A stretch of DNA of 64,000 nt from Carcharhinus amblyrhynchos (taxonomy: Eukaryota). The notes beneath the pieces are model-generated. The model did no database searches. It was given only the letters and a program-made list of their open reading frames with translations, and had not been told where the DNA came from. Location: contig OZ336885.1 in the NCBI GenBank assembly GCA_965287045.1, forward strand, positions 62,744,001 through 62,808,000. The letters run 5' to 3'. The translations under genes and the position numbers were made by a program. Position 1 is the stretch's first letter, and the number at the start of each line of letters is the position of its first letter. Positions 15,809 through 62,346 of this stretch are shown here, in pieces.

Positions 15809-15835
15809 AAAACAAGTTGAAAGAAAAAAAGAAAG
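15809..15835 (+). CDS. Candidate 27-nt phase-1 micro-exon (ENKLKEKKK) of the unassigned coiled-coil gene
   Basis: tttgtccatcacag|AAAACAAGTTGAAAGAAAAAAAGAAAG|gtattt; sequence similar to the exon at 49907. Confidence 0.7.
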
Positions 15836-16448
15836 GTATTTACTGGGATTGACGGGGTGTTCAGAGGAATGAATTGTGATTCCAGTATGAACGAAACAAA
15901 ATGGCACACAATGAAGTGGAAATATATTTTCTAATGCTACGCTCCGATTCTCATCCTCCATCCCTCTTACATCATTCTACATCATGTCGAGGAAGTGATT
16001 TGATGAGAACAAAATAAATTGCGTTTCAAACCTTTACGACAACGCTGATTAAAAAAAAAAACAAGGCATATACTTCCAAAATCTGTAAATACCACAAAGC
16101 TCACTATTCGCAATAAACAGCCCTTTATAGTCTAACGCAAAAAAAGAGAGAAATAGATGTCCATTTAAATGTAATTCGGTAGCCTTGGCATTTTCTGTAT
16201 CAATTCTAATTGCTGTCGTACTGCAAGGGGAAAAAAAAATCTGCATGGAATTTCGACTGACGTATGGCGAATTTTTACAATATCAATTGATATTTTCTTA
16301 TAATTTCCTAACTTGAAAATCGGTTAGCGCTCCCAGTTGCAAAGGAAATATGACCTGGTCTTTTTAGGAAGACACAAATAATGCTGTGCAATTTTAAGAA
16401 CACATACTTTTTCGTCACATTATTGTAGACGGTCACCATAAGGAAGCA

Positions 16449-16495
16449 TGTGTGTGTGTGTGTGTGTGTGTGTGCGTGCGTGTGTGTATGTGTGT
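16449..16495. repeat. (TG)n microsatellite
   Basis: Directly visible. Confidence 0.9.
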
Positions 16496-18476
16496 ACGTG
16501 GAAGCGCAGCATAACGATGTCTCTTTTGTCTCAAAATTGCAATACAGAAAATGTTATTTGCATATCTAAACAGTTGGGCATTAAAACCGCAAAATCAGCA
16601 TTTGTTAGCCTCACATTCTTTGCATCTTTATTATTGGCGCTCATAGTCTCTCTTTTCAACCTCAACGTTTGTTTTCAGGTTACTGATTTCGACATTCCTT
16701 GGTTTAGGATCCCACCAAGCCACAGTATTAAAACGTTTGTGTTATAATCATGCTTGGTGGATATTTCTATCCATATGGACATTCCCAACTCGTTGGCCAG
16801 GACACAATCGCCATTCTTGTAAAATTCAGTTTGCCTCCCAACATCGACAGGTTTTTTTTTGGTGCGTGAACAGCTGCAAACAACATTCACACTATCACCC
16901 GAGCAAGATGCGACACTCGTTTTGAAAACAACGAGTCAGGATCCGCCCAAAACAAAAACAATTGTTCAACGAGTGCCAAACGGGAGTAACTTAACCTGAC
17001 CTCTTTACCCCGCCGCACAAACCAGACAACACTGACTTCCACCAACCCACAGTTAGTAGGGTTACGAACCCCTTGAGGCCAGCGCCGAATACGTGCTCTC
17101 CCAGCATCCCCCCACTTCCAACACCTCCCCCCCCCCAACCCCCACCTCCTTCCCCCAACCAGCCCTTATCTCCCTGCCTCCAAGTCGGTTTATTTGAACG
17201 TACTTAGGATTCGTGTGCAATGACAAGATATTAAACAACCATTTCGGGGAATGGTGGTTTCTGGAACAACTGACTTTATTACTGCATCTCAAACATTACT
17301 ATACGGCGTTTGTCACGCTCTAAGCATTGTCTTCAGTTGATGTGCGATAGGTCGCCAAATGAACCGATTGATACTTTTTTGGCCATTTAGGACATTGCAT
17401 CAGATAATCCACCTGGCCCATTTTTCCAATGTGGGCTGCGATTACTTTCCCAGTTTCACACAGGTGTGCTGTGCACAACGATTTTTGAAATATCAGTATT
17501 GCTGAAGCAGCAAGCTCTTTGTTTCGAAGTTGAATGACACCAGTCATATCCTGGTGCCAGGGTCGAACAGTCTTTCCTTTGCAAAGCAACAGGTTTTTCA
17601 GGATGACATTTGGGGGAGTAATTATCAGCAGCTGAACAGCTAACATTGTGAGTGACGTAAAATGTTTTTTTTCTCTCCTAGCTCTGAACCAATGGCTGCA
17701 AATTATTTTTCCAAACTTTCAACTTTGCTTATATGAAGAGGAACAGTAACAACTTTGACTAAATACCTCATCTTGTTTCTAACAATCTGGCAAATTAAAG
17801 TGGTTAACTTGTCTTACGTTTCGAATGAGTTATCCAGTCATAATATTGCTTTTAGTGTGGATTGGGACAAAACATTTTCTTTATTCGCCGTTTTTTTTTC
17901 ACGCATGTTCCATGCTATAATGCACTTAATATTGAATTCATGTAATCAGATGATGCAGAACACAATTTCAAAATTGAAATTTCACATTTCCTTTGACGAA
18001 GCACCATCGAGGATTATGCACTGAAAGAGGATTTAAAAAATGAGACGTTGAGAGTGGGGATACAAAGGAAGCAGTAGAAGCACATAAGGCCGTCTCTAGG
18101 CCGAATCGTGCGCGAGATACAAGTATATATGGCCATGCTTCCAATGTGATAATTATGATACATCAGAACTCGATCGGTGAACTTTAATTGGAGAGCTTCG
18201 GGGTGGTGGGCGAGGGGGGTGGGGGTCGGCGGGGGAGGGGGGGGGGCGGAATTAACTGTGCGACAGAGAGTCTCTCTGCAGCTGCCACCAAACACATGTC
18301 AATCTTGACTAAGAAATCTAACACTCAAGGTGAAATCTAGGTTACAAGCTTTTGATTCTAAAATGGCAAAGCGAAACCGCAGAGAACCGAGAAAAAAAGA
18401 TTGTTTTTATTTTCTGAAGAGTGACATGTCTCAAATTTCAGGAACATAAAGAAATGGTAAAGGATTTAATTGTAGA

Positions 18477-18477
<1 letters not shown>

Positions 18478-18553
<76 letters not shown>
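18478..18553. repeat. (TG)n microsatellite
   Basis: Directly visible, perfect array. Confidence 0.95.
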
Positions 18554-18554
<1 letters not shown>

Positions 18555-20270: not shown

Positions 20271-20329
20271 ATATCTAGAGATGGTTAGAAATCTGGGTAG
20301 ATGTGAGGAAATCGACTAATTGATTTTTT

Positions 20330-21935: not shown

Positions 21936-21971
21936 AATTAGCCTCGTGTCAAGAAGCTTTAACGGAATCAG
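21936..21971 (+). CDS. Candidate 36-nt phase-1 micro-exon, type A (ELASCQEALTES)
   Basis: Perfect branch point TACTAAC at 21903-21909; ttcatgattcag|AATTAGCC…GAATCAG|gtaagc; paralogous to 47525-47560. Confidence 0.85.
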
Positions 21972-22029
21972 GTAAGCCGCGTAACAGACATCGATACGAA
22001 ACTCTGGGAGATTATATTGAAACAAGATA

Positions 22030-25265: not shown

Positions 25266-26418
25266 TTAACATAGAACGTAGTATACTACAGCACAAATAC
25301 TCCCTTCGGCCCACAAGTTGTGCTGATCATATCCATACATACCAGGCCTATCTATAACTCTCAATACCATTAAATGCCATGTACTCATCCAGAAGTCTGT
25401 GAAAAAGACCCCATGGAGTTCGCCTCTACCAACACCGACGGCAACCGATTCCACTCACTCATCGTCCTCTGAGTGAAAAAGTTACCCCTGACATCTCCTC
25501 TACACCTGCTTCCCAGCACCTTAAACATGTGTACTCTTGTAGCGACCATTTCAGCCCTGGGAAATAGCCTCATTGAATCCACCCTATCTATACCTCTCAA
25601 CATTTTATATCAGATCGCCTCTCAATCTTCGTCTCTCCAGGGAGAAGACACCTATCTCCCTCAACCTATCTTGATAAGACATGCCTCACAATCCAGGCAG
25701 CATCCTTGTAAATCTCCTCTGCACACTCTCAATAGCTTCCAAATCCTCCTTGTATTGGGGTGACCAGAACGGCGCACAGTACTCCAAGTTAGGTCTGACA
25801 ATGTCTTATAAAGTTGCAGCAATATCTCCCGAATCGTAAACTCAATCCCTCGATTACTGAAGGGTAGTACATCATACACCTTCCTGACCACATCCTCCAC
25901 CTGCGAGGCTGATTTAAGCGTCCTATGACCCGTACCCCAAGGTCCTTCTGCTCCTTAACAGTGCTGAGAGTCCTACTATTGATATTGTATTCCTCCATCC
26001 CATTGGACCTGCCAAAATGGACGGCTACACATTTATCCGTGTTGAAGTCCATCTGCCACTTCTCCGCCCAGTCGTGCATTTTATCTACCTCTCGTCGCAA
26101 CTTCTCACATCCCTCGAAACTATCCACAACACTACTAACCTTCGTGTCGTCGGCGAACTTACTAACCCATCCCTCCATTTTCTCTTCCAGGTCATTTATG
26201 AAAATGACAAACAGCATGGGCCCTGGAAAAAATCCCTGGGGCACTCCACTGGTGACCGACCTCCATGCAGAAAAAAGACCCATTCACAACCACTCTCTGC
26301 CTTCTGCAGGCTAGCCAGTTCTGGATCCACAAGGCAACAGCCCCTTGGATCCATGCCCTCTCAGCTTTTCAAGAAGTCTTGCCTGGGGGACCTTATCAAA
26401 TGCCTTGCTGAAGTCCAT
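25266..26418 (-). mobile_element. CR1/HER1-like LINE 3' fragment with RT motifs
   Basis: 'VTSGVPQG…LFVIFINDL…SKFADDTK' in ORF 25789-26283; same family as 9755-10460. Confidence 0.93.
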
Positions 26419-29977: not shown

Positions 29978-30004
29978 AGAAGAAATTCAAAGAACTAAAA
30001 GAAG
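29978..30004 (+). CDS. Candidate 27-nt phase-1 micro-exon, type B (EKKFKELKE)
   Basis: ttttttctgtcgctaacag|AGAAGAAATTCAAAGAACTAAAAGAAG|gtgagt; consensus donor. Confidence 0.85.
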
Positions 30005-32326: not shown

Positions 32327-32353
32327 CGGCAGAGAAAGAAGCTAAAGAAAAAG
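32327..32353 (+). CDS. Candidate 27-nt phase-1 micro-exon, type C (AAEKEAKEK)
   Basis: tcttcttcacag|CGGCAGAGAAAGAAGCTAAAGAAAAAG|gtactt; paralogous to 51374-51400. Confidence 0.8.
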
Positions 32354-33760: not shown

Positions 33761-34027
33761 ATTCAATCCACATTAACTTTTCTGATCTGGCGAAAAATGA
33801 AACTGAAAAAAAAACTGCGAATCAATGTTGTCGACAGTTCTATGAACTTACATGTACAAATCAATCACTTGCTCAACCATATAATTTAGCTTACTTCAAG
33901 GGTCCTTCTCTTTTGACCGAAGTACGGAATTTATCGGAAATGAACTCTAGTAAATATATAGTTTAATTATCAAGGGGGATTTAGCCTCTTGTGGTAATGA
34001 AGATTAACCAAGTTTATAAAAGATTGC

Positions 34028-36194
34028 GGGGGCAATTTCCCACAAATTATCGAGTGTGGAAATCTGCTAAAATCGGGCGTGAAGTGAATAACATGATTTG
34101 CGTCCTGGGAGCAACACAAGACAGCCAAAAATTGGTCTTTCTGAATAATTTGGGATTGCTCCCGACATTCTTCCACTTGTTCCAGTGTGACCGCCTCACA
34201 ATCCTACATTCTGTGTTTATGTTACTGCATCCTAGCAGCTGAGGTAGAATTCATCTCAGCGGTATTGTATATAGAAGGTTGCCAGCTGAGTTCTCGCCTC
34301 CAGCAAGCCACCCCAAAGCACAAGTCTCCTATTTAGCCTCCCCCACCGATGTACACCATTAAATATGCCGTGCTCACCAGAGAATGAACCTTAAGACTGA
34401 GCAATAACTGGACCCACAGACATGTCATTATCTGACATGATGAACTGCGAGTTGGAAGCTGATGCCGAAATGATGCCACCCTCAGAGTCCATTAACTCAC
34501 ATGCTTCAAGGACTCAATCCGAACTATCTGTGGAAGGATGGGTGCGAATCGCAGTAGAGGCCACCATTTCAAAAGTTTTCAGGGCGTCCATAAAGTGATC
34601 GTATAACATCGGTTGTACTGTTAAGTGCAAGGGAGTGAAAGGAATCCGAGATACACAAGAATTGATACATATTTCGCTGCTGAACTCAGGACAAAGCGCA
34701 AAGAAGATGAGGGGTGCGATTTTTTGGTCGCGGCCTCCAACTTTTCTGACGGGTCGCCGTTGGAGACGCGTGCCACGGGCCTTGAACTGAAATTTGCAGA
34801 TGCGCTGCGAATGCATGCACATGTCGCAGAGCAGCAAACAGTCGCCGGTCAGGCCACACTAGAAACTGGTGGGAAGGCGGTTAATTTAAATATTTAAATA
34901 TATATATATATATTTCAAATACGATTATTAGTTCATTCTCGGGACGTTTCAGATCACTGAGATCACTGGAAAAGTTAAGTGAACTCATTCGGACATCATC
35001 TACTCATCAGCTATTGTCGTGGGAATGTCAATTTTCCTTTCTCCCCTCTGAACTTGTCACCAGCGCCGGCTGCTGATCCAATGCCCTGATTTTTCTCCTG
35101 ATATGTTGCTGCGCACCACATATAGAGGATAAACTGGTGCAGAATCACACACACACACACACTCACACACACACTGAGGCATAATTGCATCAAAATCTCC
35201 CGAAGCCATTGCCAGCTCACTTCATACTCCGAAGGCGCGTGGCACGGGTAGGTTAGTCTGTGGCATTACCCTCAGGTGGGTCTCTCTTGCGATTGTTTGA
35301 CCCGCTTGTTCAGTGAAATAGTGGAATACCTGGCTGGAATGAAGTTCGGCAATGGTGGATACGAGGAGGATCGAGCGGTGGTGGCGGGGAGGAGGCGGGG
35401 GGGGGGGGGGGGGGAGCGGGGTGAGGAGTGATGTACCCGTGTGGGTATGGGCAACCTGGTGGTGAAAGCCGGTGACCTCTCGTTCTACCAAAGGGGCATT
35501 TTACCCGTCCTCAAGGGGCACCTTGTCCCTGCCCATCAGGAATCGGGCGGTGCGGTCGAATGTGGGGGCGTGGGGGGGGGGGGCGGTGCCAGAGGGTAAT
35601 AGTTGCGGGCCGAAGATCCGGTGCCAGTCTGCGGACAAGATTGTTCTGCGATGCAAGCTGTGGTGGGCCACGGGCTTGTCTACAGGATGGGATTGGACTG
35701 CGTCAGCGGATGTATTAGTCAGTGGTCAGAGAGAAAAGGTTTGTCCGGTGTTCAGGGATCGCCACTGCCGGGGGCGGGGTGGTGGTGGTGGTGGTGGTGG
35801 GGTGGGGGGGGGCGGTTGAAGGGCCGATGTTTCCACTCTCTTCATCGGGGTGGCGTAGTCAGTGCTAGTCCAGGAATTGCTCTCGGGGCCGCGATGGGGC
35901 AGTGCGGATGGAGGGTGTTGGAGGGGTTGAGGGGCAGAACTGTGATATTCTCGGGCTGGCCAGCGATTGAACTGGCCAGCAAAAGGATAGTCTAAAAAAT
36001 CGGGACGACTGCACGTCCTAAACTGTCCGACTCCGGAGCGAATAGGCCCCGCCACCTGCGTTTGTCATAATTATCACGACGACGGTTTCTTCTGTGCACA
36101 GCGTGCAAGGATTCGGTTGAGAAGCTGAACTGACAAAACAGTCAGGATTTGGAATAATTTTCCCGCTATTTCAGCACATTTGGCAGAATCGCCC
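34028..36194. mobile_element. Harbinger-like non-autonomous element(s) with G-tracts
   Basis: Candidate termini GGGGGCAATTT (34028), GGGGTGCGATTT (~34710) and …AGAATCGCCC (36194); 36030-36194 is homologous to 46330-46480. Confidence 0.5.
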
Positions 36195-36499
36195 TCTGCA
36201 TCTCAGGAATAGACTCGTTGGCTCTCCAAGCCGGCAGCGAGCAGGCTATTCATTTGAATTGTAACCCTCTATTGTCCCAGTGACCGTATGTCTTTCCCCC
36301 TCAAAAAGGCCCCTTAAATTTTACTCTCTTGTATGTCTTCACGACCTCGTATGACAGCGAGTTTCAGGCACCCACCACACAACCTGTATAAATAAACATG
36401 TATTGAACGTTTCATTTAACCTTTGCCCCTCACAGCAAAGCCGCATGCCACTGAGAAAATGCCTTACATTGATTGGAGATTTAACAAGTGCAACATGTA

Positions 36500-38060
36500 T
36501 TGTCTTTAAACTAGGTATGTTGCAGTTCCCCTTCCTGAGGTGCAGCGCCCGCTCCTGAAAGTTTTTGAGGATTCATAGGTCTGGCTTGCCAACTCCAGTC
36601 TTCGCCCTCTCTCCGGTGTTATGCTTGGTCATTGCTGAGTGTAGAAGGAATGATGATGTGACAGTGCGGATTATCAGGGGCGGGTCTCTTTGGCCAAGCA
36701 GATTGTTACTTTTGGGGGAGAGGGATAGGAATGTGGTGTTTGGGGCTGAAAGCATGCAGAGTGCTGGGTGGGAGAATAGGGCAGAGATTTGGGGAAGATG
36801 CTAGATTCGGTGACGCCATCACCGTTGCAGCCCAGATGAGGTCATTGAACTTCTGCTGGCGCTTCTTGCCGATACTGCCGGCCAGTGGCATGGCACTGAT
36901 AGATGTAGCAGCTGCCTCCCAGGCCGCAATGTCACCAACTCTCCTGGCATCGTTTCCTGCTGGGGCGAAACTAATGACCCACCTTGCCTCCGCCCCACCC
37001 AGCAGCAAGCGGGGCCATCACCAATGACACTGGGGGCAGTATGTTGGGTTACTATTTGCTGCACTTCGGCCTGTCCATCTTTTTAATTATTTTATAGTGC
37101 TGCCCCTTGATATAACAGATCAGGTGCAGACATTTTGGCAGAGCATTTCAGTAAGTAACATCAAATGTCCTTGTTGGCATTGTAAGGAAAACAATGGAGT
37201 ATTTACTGGTGTGCTGATGGATGACTGGATCAGTGTCTCTATGATGATTAGGGAAGAGAGAGAGAGAGAGAGTCGCCTTGCCATCGTCAGAGTTCGGGGC
37301 AGATGAGGGCTATGTGTAGGAATTCCCTCGGTGGGGCAGAGGGGGAGGGGGAATCACTTTGCCCGAGACAGGAGGGGGGAAGCGGAGGGATCACTCTGCC
37401 TGAGATCGTTGGGGGTAATGGGGGTGTGGGGATGGGGTGGACAGTCATATTGCACGAGACTGATAGGGGGAAGGGGCCGGCGGGTGGTTGTTTGAGTCAG
37501 GGCTTTCTACCTTTTTTTCTGCGATTCGTGGTGTTGGTGGGGGGTTGGGAGCGATGGGGGGGCCTGGTGTTGGGGATATTGGTGGCATATGGAGGCCGCT
37601 GCCACTCTGCCTCGATCAGGAGGGGTAGTTTCACTGCTGCCACCTTTCCTGCGATCGGTCACGGCTGTCACTCGGCCTGTGATCTGTGATTAGAGGGACG
37701 GTGCCAGTTTGCCTGAGACCGTTGAGGGCAAAGAGGAGCCGCTTCAATTCTTCGTCTGAAGGGGAGGGAGGAAGGGACCGCGATCTGTCTGGGTGGTGGA
37801 GTGGTGAGGGCGTAAGGCGGTTATTAATGCAAGGGAACCTGTTGGAATGTGTCTGCATTCTATCATCTGTATGCACGTGCAGAGTTTGTGGCTGCTACCG
37901 GAGCTGCATTGTTTCAGGCGCGTTCACCAGTGCTCACAGGCTTCTGCATCGACATTCGAAATCGCGGATTTTTTTTCTGAGAACCTCAATTTGGGATCAT
38001 AAAACGGAACTGAAACTGTAGTTTTTTCAATACCGCTCAGCATTTAGTATGAGAATGGTG
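36500..38060 (-). mobile_element. Harbinger relic with Myb/SANT (ORF2) domain
   Basis: ORF 36706-37008: 'AAWEAAATSISAMPLAGSIGKKRQQKFNDLIWAA', matching the Harbinger Myb/SANT pattern W…QCRKKxNDL. Confidence 0.75.
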
Positions 38061-38064
38061 GAAT

Positions 38065-39510
38065 ATAAGAACATAAGAAATAGGAGCAGGAGTAGGCCAT
38101 CTAGCCCTTCGAGCCTGCCCTGCCATTCAATAAGATCATGGCTGATCTGAAGTGACTCAGTTCCACTTTCCCGCTTTCTCCCCATAACCCTTAATTCCCT
38201 TTGCCTACCAAAAACCTATCTACCCCTGTCTTAAATATATTAAGCGAGGTAACCTCCACCACTTCAACGGGCAGAGAATTCCAGAGATTCATCACCCTTC
38301 CAGTGAAGAAGTTACTCCGTTCTAAACTGCACCGCCCCCCCCCCCCCCTCCCTTATCTTGAATCTGCGCCCTCTAACCCTGCTGCCTTTTCTGACCGGGA
38401 AGAATCTCACTACCTCTGCCCTATCCAACTCCATCATTACCTGCAATGTCTCTACAAGATCCCCCTCATCCTTCTAAACTCCAAGGAGCACTGACCCAGT
38501 CCATTTCGACTCTCTTCATCGACCAACCCCCTTCTCTCCGGTATCAGTCTAGTGAACCTCCTCTGCACTCCCGCCAAGGCCAAAATATGGTTGCGCAAGT
38601 GTGGCGATCAAAACTGCACACAGTACTCCAGCTGCGGCCTCACCAGTGCCCTGTACTCTTGCAGCAAGACCTCCCTGCTTTTATTTTCTATCCCCCTCGC
38701 TATAAAAGCCAGCATCCCATTCGCCTTCTTGATCACCTGCTGCACCTGCAGAATGGGTTTTTGCGACTCATGCACAAGGACCCCCAGGTCCCTCTGCGCC
38801 GTAGCATGCTGCAGCTTTTCGTCCTTTAAATAGTAACCCCACCTACTATTATTCCTGCCAAAGTGGATAAACTCACATTTGCTAACATTGTACTCCATCT
38901 GCCAGGTCCTCGCCCACTCCCTCAGCCTATCTAGATCCCTCTGCAGACTTTCCACACCCTCCGCACAATTTACCTTTAAACTTATCTTCGTGTCATCAGC
39001 ATATTTCGACACCCTGCACTCAGCCCCCTCCTCCAGATCATCTATATAAATGGTAAATATCTGAGGCCCCATCACCGATCCCTGGGGTACTCCGCTAGTC
39101 ACCAACCGCCAATCAGAGTAGCACCCATTGATACCAACTCTCTGTCTCCTATTAGACAACCAGTCCTCTATCCACGCTACCACTTTGCTCCCAACACCAT
39201 GCCCCCTAACATTCTGAAGCAACCTTTTGTGCGGCACCTTATCAAAGGGCTTTTGAAAATCGAGAAACACCACATCCACCGATTCCCCTGTGTCTACCAC
39301 ACTAGTCACATCCTCATAGAATTCCAATAAATTTGTCAAACACTACTTCCCCTTAACGAATCCGTGCTGCGTCTGCACTATCCAACAATTCGTCTCAAGG
39401 TGCCTCGCCATTTCTTCTTTGATAACGGATTCAAGCATTTTTCCAACAACAGACATTAAACTAACCGGCCTCTAATTCCCTGTCTTTTGCCTGCTCCCTG
39501 TTTTAAACAG
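38065..39510 (-). mobile_element. Young CR1 LINE 3' fragment with RT domain
   Basis: ORF 38608-39339: 'LDFQKPFDKVPH…[10 protein letters not shown]…YADDTK…LVRPQLEYCVQF'; (ATAAGAAC) tail. Confidence 0.95.
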
Positions 39511-40569
39511 CTGGAGTTTTCCAGTGTGTGAGAGTCTGCGTGTGTGTGTATGTGTCTGTGTATGTGGGTAGTGCACGTGTGTGTCCGTGTTTGTTTGTAC
39601 TTGTTGGTCCTGATGTTGATTGAATGATAATTCTGGGTGGGAAGGAGCTGTTGTTGACCAGTCGTTTACCCTTATACTGAGATGTAAGTAAAGCACTTGT
39701 GGACGCAACTCCGATTGTCAACTTCTACCATAAATAGAAATGTTTTGCACAACCACCTCTCTGTACACATATTCACAAGTATAGTCGTTACCTTCCATCC
39801 ATGAAATCGTTTAGGGGGCGAATTGCTGAATATGCGCTTTGGCATTCAGGAACTAGAAGTACCTGCATGGTTCTCCTGAATACGCAAAATTAACGTGCTG
39901 ACCACTGAAGCGCCAAACAAAGTGCATGCCCAGCAGGGAAGTGCACATCCATTTCATTTGGTTCAGCAAGATCGTTACATCAATGGAGAAGGTGGGTAAA
40001 TGTTCAGTATGTTACCATTGTCATAAAATTAGCTGGGATGGCTTTATATATTGCATAGATTTAGGAGCAGGTCAAAACTTGAAATTATTCCATAAACAGG
40101 TGAATGTTTCTCCCAGTAAGTCATGCAGGCCACTTCCAATGTATAAGTCACGAGTATGATGGCATATGTTGCAGTTCATTAATGAGCAAAGATCAAAACT
40201 CATCAGGCAGAGCGATACAATCAGGGAAAATCAAGTGCTCACAAGTCACAGAACTTACTGCATCTATAACGTGATGGATGCATCGATCCAGAGGTGTTGG
40301 GACAAATTGGTAAAATATCTGCTGTAATAAGTCATGATGCTAACGTTAAATTTGTTTTGCTCATATCAGTTGCAAATCAAAATATGTTATCTCTATTTTG
40401 CCAGAAATCATTCATACACCCAACCCCTTATACTGAAATATGAAGTGAATTATCAAGTAGGCAGTTTGTGATGCCAACCGATCGTAGTTTTAATTGGCAT
40501 GTGTTGTTCTGGATATTTTGAATGTCTGAAAGTTAAACGATCGAAGCATTGGACATGACTTCCCGATTG

Positions 40570-43500
40570 CAACCTACAATTTTTCTGCGAGCCCGGGCCG
40601 GGAAAGGCGCGGGTTGGCCATTTCGGGAGTTCCTGACAACTTTTCGGATGCACCAGCATCTCAAAGCCAGAGAAAAATGTTGCCAGGAACCCGCCGAAAA
40701 CCAGTGTGACGCTGATTAGTATGAGCTTACATGTCACTGCATCCAGTTGTCGGGATCCACACGTCATTATCACCGCATGTCTGCGCCTCCAACATTTTTG
40801 GCGTGATGTAAGTTTGGCGCAAATCCGAACAGATATTTAAAAGGCGCAACCTAGCTTGGCAGACATAAAATTGGGTGCGGAAGTAACCGTTAGTGCAGCG
40901 GGGGAAGGTTGCAGGCAGATCCTGTTGACGCAAAGAGGGAAGTAGGGTTGGATAATTCTCTATTTCCTCACAACTCTCTGGGTGAGGTTCGATCTGAGAG
41001 TCCTACTCCTCAGCTCCCCCTCCCACCCGCGCAGTGTTTAAGCGCACTTTGAGAAGCAGCATCCTCCCCCTGCTCCAAGCAGCGCTGAAGCGCATAGTGA
41101 AAGGGAGCATCGAGTGCTCCTGCGTCTCCGCCCAGCCTCCCAAGCAGCGCTGAAGCGCGTTGTACATAGCATTCGGGAGAACTCCCGTTTCTCCTCCCAC
41201 CTCCACACGAATTTGTACTGACGTTGTCTTGCTGCGGAATGTGGTTACGGACTATACGAAGTCCTGGCGGCATAAGAATATACCACTTACTCGCTGAGGT
41301 CGAAATAGATGAACCAGGTGCTTCTCCAGGCCCGGGTTCACAGATTCAGCCATGGACTGCATGGAATCTGCTGTCTCTGAGCACGCACCTGATTCGGATT
41401 TGCACTCTTTCCATGCCCTGTGACACGGACCAGCAGCACATGACTGTAACAGATTTTACAGTTGCAGGAATAAGAATGGCTCAAGAATGTGCAATGCCCG
41501 CGTCTGCACAACGATCTGCACATTGGGTACCAGCATTTGCCATGATGGGAATTTCACACAACCCTAATCCGACCAAGTATGGCACCACGGATTGTGTGGG
41601 GTTGGCATCTCCCACAAGTGGGAATGCTGGCCTTAGTGAGGAACTGTGGTGGTACTCTGTTTATGCAGCCAATGATAACAATACATCATTCAATGTTCTT
41701 TCCAAACTCGACTGTACAGATAAATCTCGCTTCGTTCGATCTGGAGCAGGATAAGTTTCTGCGTAAGAGGGAGGGTCCATGGCTCTGAAGACGGCAGAAT
41801 TGGTGAGACAACCGCAAGAGAAGCCGCTACGAGACCTTCAGGAGCGTGGGCATGGGGCTGTCACTGAGGGCTAGGTCGTGTGTGGAAGCTTCCAAGAACG
41901 TGCGCAGAAGGCAGCGGCTGCAAGACCAAGGCTGTGCAGGCCCCACATTTCCTTTGAGACCCTCTCTGAGGAAATGTACCAACGCAGGCTGCGCCGGTCC
42001 AAGACGATACTTCATCAAATTTGTGAGGTGCACTCACACCTGCTACTTCATGGGAACGGCGGACACCCGTTTCCTGTGGCCGTAAATTTGACAGCAACTG
42101 TTAATTTCTATGCTTACAGGTCATTCCACGCGGTCAGTGGCGACGTGGCTGGGATCTCGCAGTCCTCCCTGTACCGCTGTGTGTGCCAAGTGACAGATGT
42201 GCTGTGTGCCCGAGCAAGGCACTGGATTAATTTTGATGTGGGCATGCACAGCTGTGGACGCCAGCTCTCCGCCTTGCATCCATCTCCGGGATCCTGAATG
42301 TGCAGGACTCAGTGGAAGGCAAGCACATCACCTTGTGCCCCTCCCATGCAGGGCAGGAGCAATTTTTGAACTGGAAGGGGTTACTGAACGTTCAAATAGT
42401 CTGTGACCATCGGCTCAAAATCATGCAGCCCACTGACACCAACTGAGGAGTGTGTATGACAGTTTTGTAACCCTGGAGTCAGACATCCGTGGGCTCTTCG
42501 AGGACGAGCCCAAGCCCTCGGGATGGCGACTGGGTAACAAGGGATTCCGACAAAGGTCATGGTTGATGCCGCCTGTGCGTCGCCGCACACCGAAGCAGGG
42601 ACCCGGTACAACGAAGTAATGCATTCAATTTGTTGGTCGTTGAGCAGTGCTTCGTCCTGCTCAAGATATGGCTCTAGTCCTCCTTGGGTTGCCCTGGGGA
42701 AGCCCTCCAGTATGACAGTGTGCAATCTTCGACATTGTTATTGTTTGCTGCGCCCTGCACAATATCGCCAACAGGCGGGGGCGGGGGATGGGGGCGGGGA
42801 TACCTGCTGGAATAGGGGGAGGAGGAAGAGCAGCAGCAAGGGGGCAAAGTGGGCACCCCACCCCATGCGGAGATGGAGGAAAGATGGTAGGCGGCAATGG
42901 CAAGGAAAGGCCGTGAGGGACTCGTTTCTTGCAGCCCACTTCGCGGAGCTGGTGCTGTGCAGTTCGGGGTATGCAAGACATGCACATCTCCCCCAAGCCA
43001 GGAACAAGTGCATCCACTATTGCCCCTCCAAACCAACCTGAGCCCTCAAACCACCACATCGCCCTTCCACTGTTCCTGACTTCCCACCACAACAACCCCC
43101 AGAAACATCCGACCAAAGGAATGCGACTGGGCTGGCAATGGTTGCGAGTCTTGGCTTAAGGCGTGATAATGATGAGGACTCATTGCTGCACACACTGCGA
43201 CCGAGCACCTGCTGCAATTCAAGTCTGACTTCAACCTGAACTCCCAATGCAAGCTGTCACTTTTGTGAGGGTTGGCAACACATACTTCTTGGCCAACGGA
43301 GGGGATGGGTGTTGGCGGGGCACTTGCACCAGTATCTGGTGAATGTTAGGGAGCATATAACAGACACACTAAAACATGGGCTAAGTCTACAAGGCTCAAC
43401 AGACAGCACTTCTGTGTTTGGAAGTTTGGGCGAATTGACATTTTTATTGGGGGGTTCACACGTGGGGTGAGGGCGAATCAGGGACAAATGAGTCACAGCT

Positions 43501-45700
43501 TGATGTGCAATTAACATTTTACTGTGTTCTTAACATAAATGAGGATCGAAACCTGATAATGCTTACCTTCATCCGTTCCCTCTAGTGAACCACATCTTTC
43601 CAACTTTTTGTTGTCTATTGCTTTCTCTCGGTAACACATAGGAAAAGGAGATAGTAGGAAGTGGTGTCCACCTGAGATGTATCTCCCATTGCTTAAGATG
43701 GTCTTGGCTGACGTCCCCTGGGTGCCAGGACCTGGAAGGCCTTGGCTGACTTGTGGTTGGCACTGTTTGTGTGCCACATTGCTCATCACATCGGCCCTGG
43801 CACACCCCGAGGTGAGAAAAGGGGAATTGGGAGATCTCTGGACTTCTGGGATTTCCCGGCTGAAAGACGCTGGCATGGCCTCAAGCACATCCTCTTATTT
43901 TGGGGTGCCCAAAGGCCCCAGTGGAACATCATGGGACACCAGCGTAAGTGGACGGAGCTCCAGATACTCTGGCGTTACCTGTCTCTACCAGTCTTGTTGG
44001 CCAAGAGCTGTTTGCCCCATGTTCTGTGATCCCGCAGCTCGATCCCTCGTGGGTCATTCTCTGCAACACTCAGCTACAGCATTTTGTGAGAAAGTCAGGC
44101 TCTGCAGCCGATCAGCAGTGGTCCAATGGGCCTGGGCTTTGTTTTCCAAGTTCACAGCCATGGCCAGCTGGGTGTCTCCAGGTTGCCAGCGAGAGTCCCA
44201 GCCATGGCCAGCTGGGTCTAAATATAACCTCGACACCCATGGTCATGGAACGCTTTCTGTCCCCTGAATGCCACGAACACACTCGCCCGTGGCTCGTAGT
44301 GTCAACAGGATGGCCGGGACTCTGCCACACCTGAAAACAGACGGCTGAGCCTGAATTTCCTTCGTGGTCGGCTCCCTTGTAAAGATGGCCTAAATCTCAC
44401 GCTGTTTTGGCACCACATGCTGCAAAAACAATATCTTTGACTCCCCTAAAATGCCCTGCAGTCACAGCGTGTTTGCTGACAGCGCTTCCACAACTATCCG
44501 GGTGTCATTCATGCATGTGTGCCAGCTTTGGGAGAAACAATCCCCGAAGCCCAGAAGCTGGCTTGGGGAAGCCATATCCTGGTCTCCAGCAGATCACTGT
44601 GTGCCCGCGCCTTCGGATGGGCCCGCCTCCATCCGATCACCGTCAGCGGCAGTGATTTGTTCACCCGAGCATGACCCAGACGCCTCAACACGAAAGGTAC
44701 CCACAATGTCTCTATGTTAGTGTGTTTCAAGCTAGATGCAGATGACACTTCAGTGGTACTGCCCTCAAAGGTTTTATCAGTGCTTCCCTCCGAGATGTCA
44801 TCTGGAGGGTCGTAGGCAGTCAGCACCCGAATTGTGAGGGCGGCAGCACATCCTGAGTAGTCGGGCTTCTCTGGGTCCAGAGCTAGAAAAATAGAACATG
44901 CATTTGGGAGAAAGAGAAACAGGCAGACATTGTCTGCAGCACCGCACGAATTTAGAGTATAGCGACGATTGAGGGTGAGTTTCTGCTCACTTGCATGCTG
45001 TATGCTGACCTGACTGTCATTGACCATTCGGTATGCCCCCCCCCCCCCCCCCCCATCCCATGCCAGCTTCATGGCACAATCATCCATGCTACTCAGTTTC
45101 CACATACTATGCACACCCCTCCCAGTCTAGGTCGTCTCCCGTGCTTTGCAGATTTTTTTTTTCTGTGGGAATATAAAGTGGATAGTAAACATTAACATGT
45201 TGCATCGTGCACAATGCGTGCCTGTGTCATGATTGTTGTGCTGACATTTTCGGGGAAAACGGTCACCACTGAATGACACTCATTGAGGGACGAGGGAAGT
45301 GGTTAAATTATGTTCACATGTTGCATGCCATCTGTCTGTCCAAGTAGGGTTGGAGATCCGTGCCAAGCATGTGTGCAATTGCAAGTTTAATGCTCACTCA
45401 GCCTTGCTGCTCGCAGATGACCGTGTGGTTTATTTTTTGCGCACTTCCTGCCAGAGCGCCGTGTCAGTCTCCTGGCATTCGCCACATCGGCCATCCTCCC
45501 ACAATGCCATGACAGTTGCACCCCTTGATTTAGGACGCTGGCCAGTGAGCAGATGATCATATTTGTCCTCTGCGCCATCTAGCAGATGCTACTGGCCTGC
45601 TTGCAAAACTTTGGAAGATGCTTTCTGTGTGTCGATCTTTTTTGGCGTGACTGGGTGTGAATTCCTTCCTGCAACTTATGTAGAATTCCGGCTTATTAGG
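40570..45700. mobile_element. Degraded autonomous PIF/Harbinger transposon (transposase on +, Myb/SANT on -)
   Basis: 41878-42297: 'RRLRRSKTILHQIC…HPFPVAVNLTATVNFYAYRSF…GDVAGISQSS'; 45387-45578 (-): 'MADVANARRLTRRSGRKC…LRAAR'. Frameshifted; ends approximate. Confidence 0.85.
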
Positions 45701-46079
45701 TGAGTGCAGGGTCAGTGAGTGTGGCCAGTTGACAACAAACAGAGTTTGAAGTTTCCATTCAGTTCAGTGTCATTCATCCCTCAGTATTTTGATTGACTGC
45801 CAATTAGTCGGCTGCCGTGTACGGGACATGGTGGTGGCGGGGGGAGGGGTGCGGGATGCATTTAATAATCGATTCACTGTTGTGTTCGGGAAGTGCAATC
45901 CAAAAACTCCCATTCAAGAGAGGGAATGATTACAACCTGGTGTTCAGCATATCACCACTGTCTTAGTTCTCTGCAGGGCAGCAGTGAGGACAATATGTTA
46001 AAGGAATGGAGAGGTAGCGTACCGCATTATCCGCATCCATGGGGGGCATGATGTGAGCGGGCAGCCATGTCTCTTTGTG

Positions 46080-46640: not shown

Positions 46641-46667
46641 ATGACAAAATACGTGAGCTAAACGCAG
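46641..46667 (+). CDS. Candidate 27-nt phase-1 micro-exon, type D (DDKIRELNA)
   Basis: gccccaaacag|ATGACAAAATACGTGAGCTAAACGCAG|gtatgt; paralogous to 53619-53645. Confidence 0.8.
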
Positions 46668-46927: not shown

Positions 46928-46930
<3 letters not shown>

Positions 46931-47524: not shown

Positions 47525-47560
47525 AATTGTCCAAGTGCCAAGAAAGTTTAAAGGATACAG
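47525..47560 (+). CDS. Candidate 36-nt phase-1 micro-exon, type A (ELSKCQESLKDT)
   Basis: tatgtttcag|AATTGTCC…GGATACAG|gtaaac; paralogous to 21936-21971. Confidence 0.85.
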
Positions 47561-49906: not shown

Positions 49907-49933
49907 AACAAAAATTGAAAGGTAAAGAGAAAG
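49907..49933 (+). CDS. Candidate type B micro-exon: 27 nt (EQKLKGKEK) or 15 nt (EQKLK, ending 49921)
   Basis: tttctcgtttgcag|AACAAAAATTGAAAG|GTAAAGAGAAAG|gttatt; two in-frame donors. Confidence 0.8.
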
Positions 49934-51373: not shown

Positions 51374-51400
51374 CGGCAATATCCGAAGCGAGAGAGAAAG
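51374..51400 (+). CDS. Candidate 27-nt phase-1 micro-exon, type C (AAISEAREK)
   Basis: ttgcatttcacag|CGGCAATATCCGAAGCGAGAGAGAAAG|gttcgt; paralogous to 32327-32353. Confidence 0.8.
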
Positions 51401-53618: not shown

Positions 53619-53645
53619 ACGACAGGATAAAAGAGCTAAAAGAAG
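53619..53645 (+). CDS. Candidate 27-nt phase-1 micro-exon, type D (DDRIKELKE)
   Basis: ttttttgcctggaacag|ACGACAGGATAAAAGAGCTAAAAGAAG|gtatgt; paralogous to 46641-46667. Confidence 0.85.
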
Positions 53646-54015: not shown

Positions 54016-55206
54016 TAAGAATATAAGAACATAAGAACATAAGAAATAGGAGCAGGAGTAGGCCATCTAGCCCTTCGAGCCTGCCCCGCCATTCAATAAG
54101 ATCATGGCTGATCTGTCGTGGCTCAGTTCCACATTCCCGCCCTCTCCCCATAACCCTTAATCCCCTCTCTTATCAAAAACCCATCAACCCGCGTCTTAAA
54201 AATATTTAGCGAGGCAGCCTCCACCACTTCAACAGGCAGAGAATTCCAGAGATTCACCACCCTTTGAGTGAAGAAGTTCCTCCTCAACTCCGTTCTAAAC
54301 CGCCCCCCGCCCCCTTTATCTTGAGGCTGTGCCCCCTAGTCCTGCTGTCTTTTTTGAGCGGGAAGAGTCTCTCCACCTCTATCCTATCCATCCCATTCAT
54401 CATCTTATACGTCTCAATGAGATCTCCCCTCATTCTTCTAAACTCTTACGAGTACAAGCCTAGTTTATTCAGCCTCTCCTCATAGCTCAACCCCCTCAAC
54501 TCCGGTATCAGCCTAGTAAACCTCCTCTGCACTCCCTCCAAGGCCAAAATATCTTTGCGCAGGTGCGGCGCCCAAAACTGCACACAGTACTCCAGCTGCG
54601 GCCTCACCAATGCCCTAAACAGCTGCAGCAAGACCTCCCTACTTTTATATTCAATCCCCCTCGCTATGAAGGCCAGCATCCCATTCGCCTTCCTGACCAC
54701 CTGCTGCACCTGCAAGCTGGGTTTTTGCGACTCATGCACATGGACCCCGGGGTCCCTCTGCACCGTCGCCTGCTGCAGTTTTTCGCCCCGTAAGTAATAG
54801 TCCTTCCTACCATTATTCCTACCAAAGTGGACCACCTCACACTTGCCAACATTAAATTCCATTTGCCATTTCCTGGCCCATTCGCCCAGCCCATCTAGAT
54901 CCTTCTGCAGGCTCTCCACACCCTCCGCTCAATTTGCCGTTCCCCCAATCTTGGTGTCATCAGCAAATTTCGACACCCTACACTCGGTTCCCTCCTCCAG
55001 ATCATGTATATAAATGGTAAAAAGCTGAGGCCCCAGCACCGACCCCTGGGGCACTCCACTAGTCACCATCCGCCAATCCGAATAGCACCCGTTGACCCCC
55101 ACTCTCTGCCTCCTATTTGACGACCAATCCTCTATCCACGCTAACACCCTACCCCCAACTCCATGTCCCTCGACCTTCTGCAATAACCTTTTGTGAGGTA
55201 CTTTAT
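54016..55206 (-). mobile_element. Young CR1 LINE 3' fragment with RT domain
   Basis: ORFs 54929-55210 and 54446-54919: '[16 protein letters not shown]…FADDTK…LEGVQRRFTRLIP'; (ATAAGAAC)n tail. Confidence 0.95.
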
Positions 55207-56790: not shown

Positions 56791-58229
56791 TCTTTCCAAC
56801 TTCTCTAGAAAAGTGACTTGTGATTCAATCGTGGTGAGAAGGCAAAGTAAAAATCTTATTCACGGAAGCCCCTAAATACATTGGTAGCACAGACTGGACA
56901 GTCATTAGAATTTCACCGATGGGTGTACTTTGACATTCTCTGAGCACAATAATAATCAACCGTCACGTACCAATGTGAATGTTAATTAATGTGTCGTAAC
57001 GGATTTTTCGAAAGGTAGATTTATTTTTCAGAATCCATGAACAGCATGTCATGGAAAGGAGAAAAAAAAACGTGAGAGACGATTGAGAAAATATGTTCAG
57101 ATTAACTAATAACAGGACCTATTGGATACAATCAAAGTGAAGTTGGCAACATGGGAGAAAAGGAAACTGCGTTCGATACAGGAAATTGAGTTGTGCGAGG
57201 GAGCTGAACGTTAATTAAAATTGGAACAGGAAAAGGGCTGATATCAAAAAGTCGCGATTTAGGGCGAATGCAGAAGCTGACTTGGGACACATTGGGGGAA
57301 AGTGGCATGTGTAGATGTGCAGAACTTTAGGGAATATTGCAGAATGGAGACAACGTAAGGCTGTCATAAGCATTGGCTTATTATTGAGCACCTGTTCCAA
57401 AAACGTGAGGATTTCCATAGCAAAAGCACTGCGGTTGTATGGCACATAGCGTTGTCCTACAGTTTTGGTTGTTTAATGTCGGCATGGTATGGAAGTTCAA
57501 AATTTATTTTGAACACAAAATAAACGAAACGAATGCCAGACACTTTCGGTGTAATTCGAATACATAGATTCTTACAAGGAGCGAAAATGGATACCTCCTC
57601 CTCTGTCACAATGGCCATGTAATTGAACGAATATAATGCAGATTTCAGTAAATGCTTCTCAACAAATGTTTCTGGTTTGTTAACCTATCCAGAATTAAGC
57701 CGGTGTCAAGCAAACCAAAAGAATTTACGTAAGCATCCTGATGTCAGTCTGCATGAAACTCGTCAACGTAGTTTTGTAATTAATAGCATTATGAATGTGC
57801 AGTTTCATTTCCTGTACACATGCAAACTATTTTTTTTGCTGTTACCTGTAAGTCCTGCATACTTAGAGCATGAAAAATATTCTATCCTCCGGAAATGCCA
57901 AGTAAAAAAAAACTTAAGAATGTATGTTGATAACGAGTTGTATCCATTGTGAACGCTTCTAGTGGTAATTACGTGCTCAGAGTTAAATCCAAGCCATTCC
58001 TTTATATGCAATATTGTACATGCAGAAGAGAAGGAAACAAATACAAAGAAAACAATTGCTTTGTTTTGACATTTGTTACAATGTTCCTTGGAGTGGAGGG
58101 ATGTGGCGAACAGGCTTAATACCGTTTTTTCCAAAAATTCTTTTCGTCAGTTACAATCTATTTCCAACACTTGACATACGAAAACGCAAGCATTAGAATC
58201 CCTGTTCACTGAAAGAGAAATTCCTTCCG

Positions 58230-58515
58230 GTGCTTATTAGTCGACGGCGAAAGTGTCCACACCCATTCTAGGAAGGAGCACATTGCCCAGTGCCACTTTC
58301 TGGCCTATTCTCATACCTCCGCCCGTGTTTGTCTTCCTTTGCTGCGTGACCTTTCCAACATAGGATGTGGCAATACAGCACGATAAATCCAACCACACAG
58401 CACACCTTTGGATTGAGGAAGGAAATCCAAAAACCGGGGAAACGCCAAGCAGTCGTGGAGCAAAGGAGCAAACATCACACATTCACCCAAGGCCAGAACC
58501 AACCGTGGTTCTTTC
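58230..58515 (-). mobile_element. Degraded HE1-like SINE
   Basis: GCACACCTTTGGATTGAGGAAGGAAATCC…CACATTCACCCAAGGCCAGAA core. Confidence 0.6.
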
Positions 58516-60489
58516 GCACAACTATGCAGACGTAAAAAAAATCACTTTACAAATCTAAGCATCCACAATACAAACGGTTACAACACATCAGAACATAGCA
58601 GGTGTGATAACTATTGTCGTTCTTGGCGAAATGAATTATCTTCTTCGTAGATATCATTGGCTCTCTTGACGATGTGATGAACATATGCCAGAAGGCAGCC
58701 TCTACTGACCAGTATGAATACCATCAAGTCACAGATTTGAAAAGTGTTGCAGTACCAAATAGATCATTCAGTTCATCATTCTGGTGCTTGCCAGCCACCA
58801 GACACCAAACTATTCCATCTCAATATTCCAGCACTCGGTCTGTGGTTCTCTATTATATTGAGATTTAATGTCTCACCTAAACGCTTTTGAAATATGTAAC
58901 CGTTCCGTTATGACCGATCATTTAAGATGACGAGGTGCAGGTCATTTTTGTAACAATGCCATTTCCCCGAAAAACAAAACAAAGTTTCTGTCCCATAACC
59001 TAAATTTATGCACCATGTTTATTACCCTCTGCATTAAGCACAAATGTGTCTTAATATTTACCCTACCCTCGGGCATGATAGCTTCAGACCATTCAGCTTC
59101 CCTCTTAGCCGATCTGGTCCAAGGAAACAACGTCACCTAAAAAAAATTCTCTTCATATCTGAAACGCTCCAGAACTGGCAGTGTGGAAAGAGAAAGAATG
59201 GCTACAACAATACTTTAACAAACATAATAGCTTTACTTTTGTTTTTAATTAGTGTTCTGACTGAGAGTGAAGCATGCTCGGAGTTTTGGTCAATTTATGG
59301 ATTAAAACCAGAAGCAGGTCGGAGAGAGAATCAGGTCTGTATGCTGTAATCCAAAACTTCCTATGTTGGTCAGATCACGGAAGTGGTTTGTTTCAACTGA
59401 GACAGCGTGTCTCTGATTTATATGGATATTATGTATGGGACATGTAAAATGAACTAAACATCGTGGAGTCGTTCAAAAGTAATTTTAACTGGGTGTTCGA
59501 AGGACGTGACTGTTTTATGGTTGCACGGTAAGTCGGATGACAGATAATCTTCTGGAAGCAAGCGGAGAATTGTGGATAAAAGATATGTGAGTTCTGTGTT
59601 TGGCAGTGATAACTTCAAGAGAACAAATATCGCAAGAAGACCTTGTACCATGAAGAATACTTCAGACAGGAGAATGTATAGTATATTCCTTGGTCAAGGT
59701 TTTCGTAACTCGTTCGTACCTATTTTCGGCTAAATATTAAAAGTTGATGCTCAGTTACAATTAATTTTCAGTAACGAGTTAATGAGTTACAACCGTTGAT
59801 GTTTAGGTTGACACTAAAAGTGTGAAATGAAGAATGAACTCAATTGCTGCGACTTCTTTGCCTCTAAAATGGAACGCTTGTAACGCGTTTAGTTTAAAGA
59901 TGTATAACAGTGGATACGATGTATTACCTTCTCCAGTGCGAACAAATCATTGTATAGTGTGCGGAGGAGAACTGCGCAGAGTACAGTATAAAGAGGTATG
60001 CTCCGAGAACATTCTGGAACCCACACATCGTGGAGTTATTCTTCGATAAGATTGTCTTTTCGGTTCTTGCATCTTACATCTTTTACATTTTCCAGGCTTC
60101 AATGTTATTCATTACGGCTCTGCCCGTCAACAGTTTTGCAGATAGCATTCTTTCCAGCTTTTTATCAAAGGAATAATATTCGCGTGATCTGTGCAAATCA
60201 AGTCAAGCCTTCTGCTTTCACGTCAAGTTCATGACCGTAAACTGCAAAAAGCACGCAATTCAAAAAATTCACACAAAAACAAATAGATCATCTTTGCCTT
60301 CTGCCACGAACAGTATTCTAGATTGCCTTTGCGAAATGAATTCGATCCAAGATCTCTCAATATTTTGACATGTAATAAATACATAGGATGTCAAGTGTGC
60401 TAGTAAAATCCATGTGGAACATAAAACGTGCACAGTCGTAATGTACAAAGTTCACGTAACTTCTTGAATAGTTCAATACAATTGGTTAA

Positions 60490-61740
60490 ATCTGGCTACT
60501 CCCTATATAGCCACCCTGCCTGCCCCTGACCATTCATTGTTTCTCTCAGTGGAGAGTAATTATCAGAAACAAATCCAAATAATCTCCCGAACAGGCATGT
60601 TCAATTGCCTGCAATTACTTGATATATCACCACATGCCTTCTTGAATAACGATGTCACATTATTTGCCCACAGTCACCAGGCACCTCTCCTGTGGCCAGA
60701 CATGACGAAATTTATTGGCAGAGCGACAATATTTTCTCCCTTCTTTAAGGCAGCAGACTATAATACAGCTGACCAAGGCTTGGGGATTTAGCAAGGTTTG
60801 TTTCCCGTGAGGCTAACATGACGTTCTCAATCCCAATGCTAATTAGTTCAATTGCTTGACACTTCCCTTCTGTTATTCATATACCGCTATTATCCTTTTA
60901 CGTAATGAACACAACTGCAAACGTAAACAAACAAAACAAAAACTTGAATGATCTGACTATGTCCTTCCACTCCACATGCATATTGGGACTTCGTTCACGA
61001 ACAGTCCATTCTCATTCACGGGTTATCCGTTACCCCTTAATTTATGTAGAACATACAGTGAGGCTTTCTGTTATGCTGTCCAACCATGATTATTTCTCAC
61101 ACCTCAACCAACTGCTTTGAATAATTTCCACATACATTTCCTGCTTCTACTTTTTCAGCCCCTTGAATCAGTCGTTTCTTTTCCTGGTGCAACCCTTTTT
61201 GAAACTTGTGATTCAGTCTTCTGCAGACATGTTTTACCCACACTTTACGTTTACAGAAGCAAGTTTTCTTTCTACTCTCTTTGATTGTTTTTTGAAAGAC
61301 GCCAACTGTTATCACGTGGAATTCCTTGAATTTCGCTGTGACTTGTATTATTTACCCATATATTGCCGTAACAACTTAAAATCTGCCTTGCCCCATTTTG
61401 GAACTTTTTTTTTTCTGAATCCACCACAACTCCCTGAACTGACTTGTAACAACACTGGTGGAAAAAGCCTTGCACTATATTTCTACGCGGAATTTCAACT
61501 AATCCAATATCTCAACCTTGTCATCAGTAATGTGTGTTTAAATCATTGACATTTCTATCATGCTGCTAAGAGTATTAATACATAACATAGCTACCAATAT
61601 TAACAGTTATTGAGTTGTCATCACTATCGGCAATACGCTCCTCATTGACATTTCAATCACATGGTTGCCTTTATTCCAGACAACTTGGTCCAATACCTCC
61701 ACGAATTATTTGGAAAACGTCTCTTTTGGTGAACGGATTC
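60490..61740 (-). mobile_element. Old degraded CR1 (EN-RT linker region)
   Basis: Residual similarity only; boundaries approximate. Confidence 0.45.
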
Positions 61741-61798
61741 CCTTAAAGTAATGTAAGAAAACTTTTATGCATTTCACAAAAATCAGTCTTTTTTTTAG

Positions 61799-62169
61799 TT
61801 TCAAGATGTAAAGAAAATTTATTTCAAGCCATAAAAAAAACATTCGAGACAAATGTTAAAATCGGACATAGGAGACCTTCGAATGGAGAAGAAGTGCTGA
61901 GTCAATGTGACAAACCCTACGAAGAGTTGTGGCACAGGACTGAAGTTCATTGCGATGGTATCCTGCGGATATCTAAGATATTCCCACTAACTGGTTTATA
62001 CTGTATTACTTGTCTTGGTGACATGTCAGTCCACAACAAGATTGTTGCTTCAGCTAATTGTGAAATTCCCAAAGACGCTTTGCCAAGACAATCGGGTGTA
62101 TCAGTCCAAGACCACTTGGCAGGCACACTCTTATGCCCAGACAATGGGTCCTTTCAATTTTGCATTTAA
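61799..62169 (+). CDS. Candidate terminal coding exon (123 aa, Cys-rich) of the micro-exon gene
   Basis: tcttttttttag| acceptor; open in phase 1: VSRCKENLFQAIKKTFETNVKIGHRRPSNGEEVLSQCDKPYEELWHRTEVHCDGILRISKIFPLTGLYCITCLGDMSVHNKIVASANCEIPKDALPRQSGVSVQDHLAGTLLCPDNGSFQFCI*. It begins with a type-A-like motif exactly where the module predicts one. Confidence 0.7.
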
Positions 62170-62340
62170 CGTTTCATTAAGTGTTTCAACATGTGTCCTG
62201 TGTTCGAATCTTCTTTATAATTTACGATGACTAATTTATTGTCAGTTTCGAGTGGTTGAATTTCTATCGACTCAGCAATGTTTGTTAATTTGTTATGGTG
62301 AATATGAGAAACTTATTGTATATTAACACTCATCAATCAA

Positions 62341-62346
62341 AATAAA
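62341..62346 (+). terminator. Candidate polyadenylation signal AATAAA
   Basis: About 170 nt after the stop codon and followed by a T-rich tract; a second AATAAA lies at 62702-62707. Confidence 0.5.

Follow-up and report, generated by a model that had tools for sequence, protein, structure and literature searches.

A micro-exon array of about 850 kb in Carcharhinus amblyrhynchos likely encodes a long coiled-coil rod ending in a B30.2/SPRY domain

The 64,000-nucleotide (nt) stretch of the Carcharhinus amblyrhynchos genome analyzed here (contig OZ336885.1, G000:C16:62744001-62808000; hereafter the window) carries the middle of a gene assembled from very small exons. Window coordinates are used throughout, with negative numbers lying upstream of the window. 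An original prediction made from the window had proposed a hidden gene for a cysteine-containing coiled coil, built from symmetric phase-1 micro-exons, and in this it was right. All nine of its segments (9/9) were found in place, with AG and GT at their borders, a length of 27 or 36 nt, a final G and an open phase-1 frame, and the peptides listed for them match those recomputed from the sequence. The analogy it drew to butyrophilin and BG tails was also apt. There is also a tenth exon of 36 nt, at 57693-57728, that had been overlooked. The features of the locus are as follows.

15809-15835, plus strand: 27-nt phase-1 micro-exon; intact homologues at 78451 and 144709
21936-21971, plus strand: 36-nt phase-1 micro-exon of the L-x-x-C-x-x-x-L type; homologues at 85749 and 151386
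29978-30004, plus strand: 27-nt phase-1 micro-exon; homologues at -35697, 96681 and 160777
32327-32353, plus strand: 27-nt phase-1 micro-exon; homologues at -30855, 104491 and 165603
46641-46667, plus strand: 27-nt phase-1 micro-exon; three homologues
47525-47560, plus strand: 36-nt phase-1 micro-exon with Cys; identical exon at -17896, where the flanks are just 87% alike
49907-49933, plus strand: 27-nt phase-1 micro-exon; in-frame alternative donor inside, after 15 nt
51374-51400, plus strand: 27-nt phase-1 micro-exon; two homologues
53619-53645, plus strand: 27-nt phase-1 micro-exon; two homologues
57693-57728, plus strand: 36-nt phase-1 micro-exon, new here; homologues at -8977 and 125641
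1-64000, plus strand: inferred gene (array plus B30.2 exon), extending beyond both window ends
G000:C16:63068075-63068595 (+324 kb), plus strand: terminal phase-1 B30.2/SPRY exon with stop codon; frame intact
About -40 kb to +26 kb, plus strand: first ~65-kb tandem copy of the exon block
26000-64000, plus strand: second ~65-kb tandem copy, approximate extent in the window; 80-85% identity to its neighbours
61799-62169, plus strand: repeat-derived open frame of 123 amino acids (aa) inside an inferred intron, with matches elsewhere in the genome; not counted in the gene

Within the window, a control with generic, untrained splice scores returned nine charged segments of 27 or 36 nt on the plus strand versus one on the minus strand, and four other length pairs gave 0-1 per strand. 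The nine plus-strand matches comprise eight of the original segments and one unrelated; the segment at 21936 failed the charge filter alone. We examined about 1.7 Mb around the window and the near paralogues. A 664-kb scan with array-trained splice matrices found 56 exons of 27 nt and 33 of 36 nt on the plus strand, with at most four of any other length, and two and one, respectively, on the minus strand. At one score threshold over 869 kb, 111 exons were detected on the plus strand versus 1 on the minus strand, 61 of the 111 being 27 nt long, 44 being 36 nt and 6 having other lengths (2 of these 21 nt). Addition by hand of ten exons, five at each end, yielded an array of 121 exons, whose introns have a median length of 3.3 kb and reach 45.7 kb. 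The array runs on the plus strand from -526 kb, with its first exon found at G000:C16:62217530, to +320 kb. The window, taken in the original prediction for the 3' part of the gene, is thus its middle, and its ten exons belong to about 121 phase-1 exons likely spliced into one protein. A block of ~65 kb that holds the window exons is repeated three times plus part of a fourth, with 80-85% identity. The 5' third of the array is divergent and includes non-coil exons of 42-45 nt. There we observed three related Gly-containing exons of 42-45 nt and one Pro/Gly exon (-466437, -429637, -413641 and -484437), which are probable non-coil linkers. In exon 49907-49933, the donor after 15 nt outscores the 27-nt donor and is a possible alternative 5' splice site.

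Comparison of the tandem copies indicated how these exons have been maintained. All 112 exon-spanning alignments, from 16 multi-copy families, land on intact exons, and the sole change in length is an in-frame loss of 6 nt. The modules missing from the window's tandem copy are 27+36 pairs. Had the copies drifted neutrally at 5-7.5% divergence each, splice-site loss or a new stop should have struck 11.5-16.4 of 51 exons, and 0 of 5000 drift simulations left every exon unbroken. Frame and splicing are retained while surface residues drift.

The array leads to an exon at +324 kb whose phase-1 acceptor is in phase with it. The encoded domain matches the SPRY family PF00622 at 58 bits versus a cut-off of 26.3 and is similar to 89 solved sequences (best E 5e-20), the best relatives being the B30.2 domains of TRIM21 and BTN3A1; alignment to BTN3A1 spans residues 6-162. 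For the PRY subdomain, no PF13765 match was obtained at E 0.01, and two relatives match below cut-off. A structural model built from six rows (predicted local distance difference test score, pLDDT, 51) matches PRY-SPRY structures and adds little. In the 1.31 Mb scanned, B30.2 frames were confined to this exon and a convergent paralogue, and no other B30.2 exon lies inside the array. A search for immunoglobulin (Ig) exons with a profile of 59 homologues found B30.2 frames alone in the 1.31 Mb and a further 0.39 Mb, a search that had no shark Ig exon as positive control and that covered a gene whose 5' end is unmapped. Likewise, a phmmer search for RING and B-box domains with an axolotl TRIM39-like protein found B30.2 alone in the 1.31 Mb, and a motif scan for them was negative. 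The protein model XP_038668997.1 of Scyliorhinus canicula is 76% identical over the B30.2 domain and joins it to homologues of the exons at 295179, 297883, 300767 and 319537. By sequence it is the likely orthologue of the window gene; it keeps the last few exons only, and its remainder, including its start, resembles long interspersed nuclear elements (LINE). That the array is spliced to the B30.2 exon is highly probable. Four of the five listed sequencing runs, examined over the last intron and the B30.2 exon, covered introns evenly, and are therefore genomic and uninformative on expression.

The original prediction had instead ended the gene at 61799, in an unrecognised C-terminal domain. 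The 123-aa open frame at 61799-62169 exists, but it is not terminal, as the array resumes at 65234 and beyond, and the true C-terminal domain is the B30.2/SPRY domain 260 kb downstream. By its genomic distribution, the frame is an old interspersed repeat and not a new domain. The sequence as it stands in the window aligns to 21 places outside this locus, and the longer tandem copy at -4860, with an extra segment of 114 nt, matches 32 other places on 15 contigs at 65-80%. Relative to the window frame, this longer copy also carries a stop and a 1-nt frameshift, and a third tandem copy is without the 61799 segment altogether. Because several of the 32 alignments cross the 114-nt segment, the ancestral element had it, with its stops, and a deletion opened the window frame. 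Searches with the frame returned 0 Pfam families, a best PDB match of E 0.25, no homologue and no usable match in the atlas. A first-glance reading of it as TNF/C1q-like found no support, and a single-sequence model was uninformative (pLDDT 40.7). The underlying repeat may be the relic of an old DNA transposon, since at G000:C30 3.79-4.19 Mb and at C27:14.53 Mb it occurs in closely spaced, partly inverted pairs.

Five more B30.2 exons, of 37-43% identity, are present on contig 16. In four of these paralogues (30-40 kb each), 7, 7, 5 and 7 exons of 27/36 nt were found ahead of the B30.2 exon versus 2, 0, 0 and 2 on the opposite strand, and the convergent paralogue has an array of about 480 kb with 76 exons versus 2 on the control strand. 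A profile search returned protein models from sharks, rays and chimaeras; therefore the gene, called lineage-specific in the original prediction, is not narrowly so. In a 47-row tree with a midpoint root only and with outgroup rows hand-picked from search matches, a branch with 100/100 support separates 15 rows of this family (6 genomic, 9 from databases) from 32 BTN, TRIM and other rows. With a B30.2 domain of this clade preceded by 27/36-nt phase-1 exons, the window gene belongs to a chondrichthyan clade of micro-exon coiled-coil B30.2 genes. The Callorhinchus milii model XP_042192744.1 is a 1697-aa rod plus SPRY protein with the same L-x-x-C-x-x-x-L repeats and, in addition, a non-coil 8-residue tandem repeat. 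It and XP_007898089.1 of the same species, together with XP_038668997.1 and XP_038672308.1 (S. canicula), XP_055510696.1 (Leucoraja), XP_069775385.1 (Narcine) and XP_078422387.1 (Cetorhinus), are uncharacterised predictions with stand-in names. They share with the window gene the B30.2 clade, a coiled coil that adjoins the domain in the longer models, and isoform differences of 9 aa; like it, those scanned gave no RING or Ig match in Pfam. The window gene differs in having about 121 micro-exons over ~850 kb. In each of the RefSeq isoform sets of catshark, chimaera and electric ray, members are distinguished by a block of 9 residues, as 27-nt cassettes predict, and 6- and 7-residue blocks occur too.

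Other B30.2-related observations were made on and beyond this contig. At G000:C16:62077151-62104130 (minus strand), at least eight 21-nt phase-1 exons, the exon size of chicken BG, encode an L-K-K-type heptad; the B30.2 exon at 61.08 Mb lies further along their strand. Should they be part of that gene, it would be about 1 Mb long and mix 21-nt with 27/36-nt modules. A retrovirus-like element with gag-, protease-, integrase- and envelope-like frames, recognized by eye, lies at +345.9 to +349.7 kb between the two convergent B30.2 genes, and a related stretch lies near -90.7 kb. A seventh B30.2 exon (G000:C9:106383667-106384176, minus strand) scores between the contig-16 clade and generic TRIM/BTN copies. 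More than 100 generic B30.2 exons form large clusters on contigs C9, C41, C46, C53 and C73, which are probably TRIM or butyrophilin-like expansions. Within the window, positions 34000-46000 are GC-rich (47-53%), and LINE-type fragments, all on the minus strand, lie at 38608-39342, 9829-10572, 25789-26283 and 54446-54928, with 38611-39342 matching RVT_1. A frame at 41875-42297 seemed transposase-like, but Pfam gave no match to it. The LINE-type copy at 54024-55204 shares 96% identity with another at 83748-84923, and is therefore newer than the tandem duplication.

Joined computationally, the exons encode about 1,410 residues, consisting of a 1,240-residue rod and the B30.2 domain. Over its 1240 aa the rod contains 5 Pro; its hydrophobic residues recur with a period of 3.5, Cys makes up 3.5% of residues, and Cys spacing is 21 in 17 cases. 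Among the 44 exons of 36 nt, 96% have L/I at position 2, 73% have C at position 5 and 73% have L/V at position 9; of the 27-nt exons, 72% have L/I at position 4. Because a 36+27-nt pair contributes 12+9 residues, it would form three heptads with Cys at a d position, the core of the 21-residue unit being L2, C5, L9, x12, L16 and x19; two extra 27-nt exons would add a stutter. If continuous, the rod would reach up to ~180 nm at 0.1485 nm per residue, and Gly-rich exons in its 5' part probably break it. Exon lengths are without exception divisible by three, and G is the last base of nearly all exons, so that junction codons are almost never stops. Any exon could be added, lost or skipped without breaking the frame, and, with a pair equal to three heptads, the rod would change in ~3-nm steps with its register kept. 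Cysteines at d positions would cross-link parallel coiled-coil chains, and the rod may be a long spacer that oligomerises and so displays several B30.2 heads together, allowing avid binding.

Parts of this design are found in known systems. Chicken BG genes and the zipper protein have a coiled coil from 13-36 exons of 21 or 24 nt, in exon strings subject to copy-number change and alternative splicing (PMC4046983, PMC5938342); BG has an Ig-V domain with a transmembrane segment and is contrasted with butyrophilins, which end in B30.2. Butyrophilins occur in cartilaginous fishes (PMC12841164). The window gene likewise encodes a long coiled coil from strings of tiny exons, but its unit is 36+27 nt (of the 111 scored exons, 105 have one of these two lengths and 2 have 21 nt), its exons number about 121, a B30.2 domain is present, and no Ig exon, Ig-V included, was found in the DNA searched. 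Butyrophilins (BTN, BTNL, ERMAP) place heptad repeats before a terminal B30.2 domain, as the window gene does by its inferred splicing; they differ in having few heptads versus roughly 170, in their IgV/IgC domains, which our search did not find here, and in the separate clade of the B30.2 domain. TRIM-B30.2 proteins (TRIM21, TRIM39-like) also pair a coiled coil with B30.2, and automated family names read 'TRIM-like', but the window gene has a micro-exon rod and our searches found neither RING nor B-box. Two precedents for parts of the design are vespryns, including ohanin, which are secreted B30.2 proteins without a rod, and guinea-pig enterophilins, which are short, Ig-less mammalian proteins of heptads plus B30.2. 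On the features compared here, the window gene does not qualify as a butyrophilin, BG or TRIM gene; it is in effect a much lengthened form of the butyrophilin/BG design. Literature and accession searches found no paper describing these genes, although genome-paper supplements could list the loci.

Our preferred reading is that the locus encodes one parallel coiled-coil rod of ~1,400 residues with a B30.2/SPRY cap, likely secreted, and we place its probability, taken whole, at roughly 0.5. Several points tell against it. The array itself supplied the training set for the splice and peptide matrices, and the strand control therefore weighs more than the scores; the lack of stops in the exon catalogue is a product of the filter and no evidence in itself. 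The junctions are predictions from genomic DNA, and the RefSeq isoforms are likewise predicted models. Exon identity between copies (84.5% versus 85.4% in flanks) indicates weak amino-acid constraint, as does dN/dS, the ratio of nonsynonymous to synonymous substitution rates, at 0.66 on 52 non-independent pairs. Nucleotide conservation no higher than that of flanks is what dead or chance pseudo-exons multiplied by segmental duplication would display. The strand asymmetry of 111 to 1, the absence of broken homologues from the 112 alignments when drift predicts many, and recurrence of the design in five paralogues and other species make that origin extremely improbable. The view that the exons splice into a terminal exon at 61799 with a new domain is very unlikely as well. 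In its favor, the acceptor there is strong and in phase 1, the frame stays open for 123 aa and its beginning resembles the 36-nt exons, yet the site lies in a repeat matched at 32 places on 15 contigs, its frame arose by deletion, its sister copies are disrupted (-4860) or devoid of the region, database searches were blank and the array goes on for 260 kb; at most it would be an exonised repeat yielding a truncated isoform. Division of the array into several genes or transcription units, or joining of a subset of exons with no 1,400-residue product, is unlikely, if somewhat less so. Introns of up to 45.7 kb, the divergent 5' third with its non-coil exons of 42-45 nt and annotated short family members of 220-460 aa would suit it, and it is opposed by the lack of another B30.2 exon within the array and by the 1697-aa chimaera model, which shows the full design.

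The alternative that carries more weight concerns the location of the protein. Leaders in two distant lineages together with periodic core cysteines favor a secreted rod, and, given the gene structure, a putative signal peptide and secretion are slightly better than an even proposition. Hydrophobic leaders open the skate model XP_055510696.1 and the chimaera model, with 10-aa hydropathy peaking at 3.26 and 2.71, respectively. The same gene could instead specify a cytosolic protein, or one with a short N-terminal anchor, that serves as a cytoskeletal spacer with a cytosolic B30.2 sensor. Such a protein would resemble a hugely extended butyrophilin/BG tail or zipper protein, with Cys as small core residues. 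This is the less probable location. B30.2 domains are normally cytosolic, as in butyrophilins and TRIMs (PMC4046983), and in BG tails a coiled coil encoded by micro-exons serves a cytoskeletal function (PMC4046983, PMC5938342). Leader-like starts occur in just 2 of 6 related gene models, and a basic cluster follows the chimaera leader, as in signal anchors. Of the four leaderless models, however, one starts in LINE junk and three vary in their starts between isoforms, and acidic residues follow the skate leader, as in cleaved signal peptides, when judged by eye. Periodic Cys, at 3.5% of the rod, is unusual in cytosolic rods. At this locus, leader-like first exons occur upstream at 1.06 per 100 kb versus 0.85-1.03 in controls, so that the gene start is unmapped, and a CpG scan, tblastx of paralogue 5' regions and comparison with the chimaera N-terminus yielded nothing above control. 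Two first-exon candidates were seen, at -575423 (leader-like) and -527535 (no leader). Hydrophobic candidates for a transmembrane exon before the heptad exons were at chance level only. Glycosylation sequons number 7 versus 3.5 expected in the window-gene rod, with which the chimaera rod disagrees (2 versus 5.0 expected).

If expressed as proposed here, this would be an extreme micro-exon gene in which coding sequence takes up about 0.5% of ~850 kb. A span of 6 Mb holds six B30.2 paralogues with arrays of this type, and public annotation fragments such genes or names them after TRIMs, myosin or nuclear-pore proteins. The heptad-exon principle of butyrophilins and BG is here stretched several-fold with a different module (36+27 nt), and there is a hint of an extracellular B30.2 scaffold. 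A bolder proposal, which we regard as speculative and rather doubtful in full, is that since the split of chimaeras and sharks cartilaginous fishes have kept a cluster of half-megabase-to-megabase genes for secreted, disulfide-stapled rods tipped with B30.2. Rod length would be tuned in three-heptad steps as 63-nt exon pairs are duplicated, deleted or skipped, making each gene a splice-programmable molecular ruler; its product might serve structure or defence in plasma, mucus or the secretions of glands. The locus would in addition offer a clean system for the splicing of about 120 micro-exons across introns of up to 45 kb.

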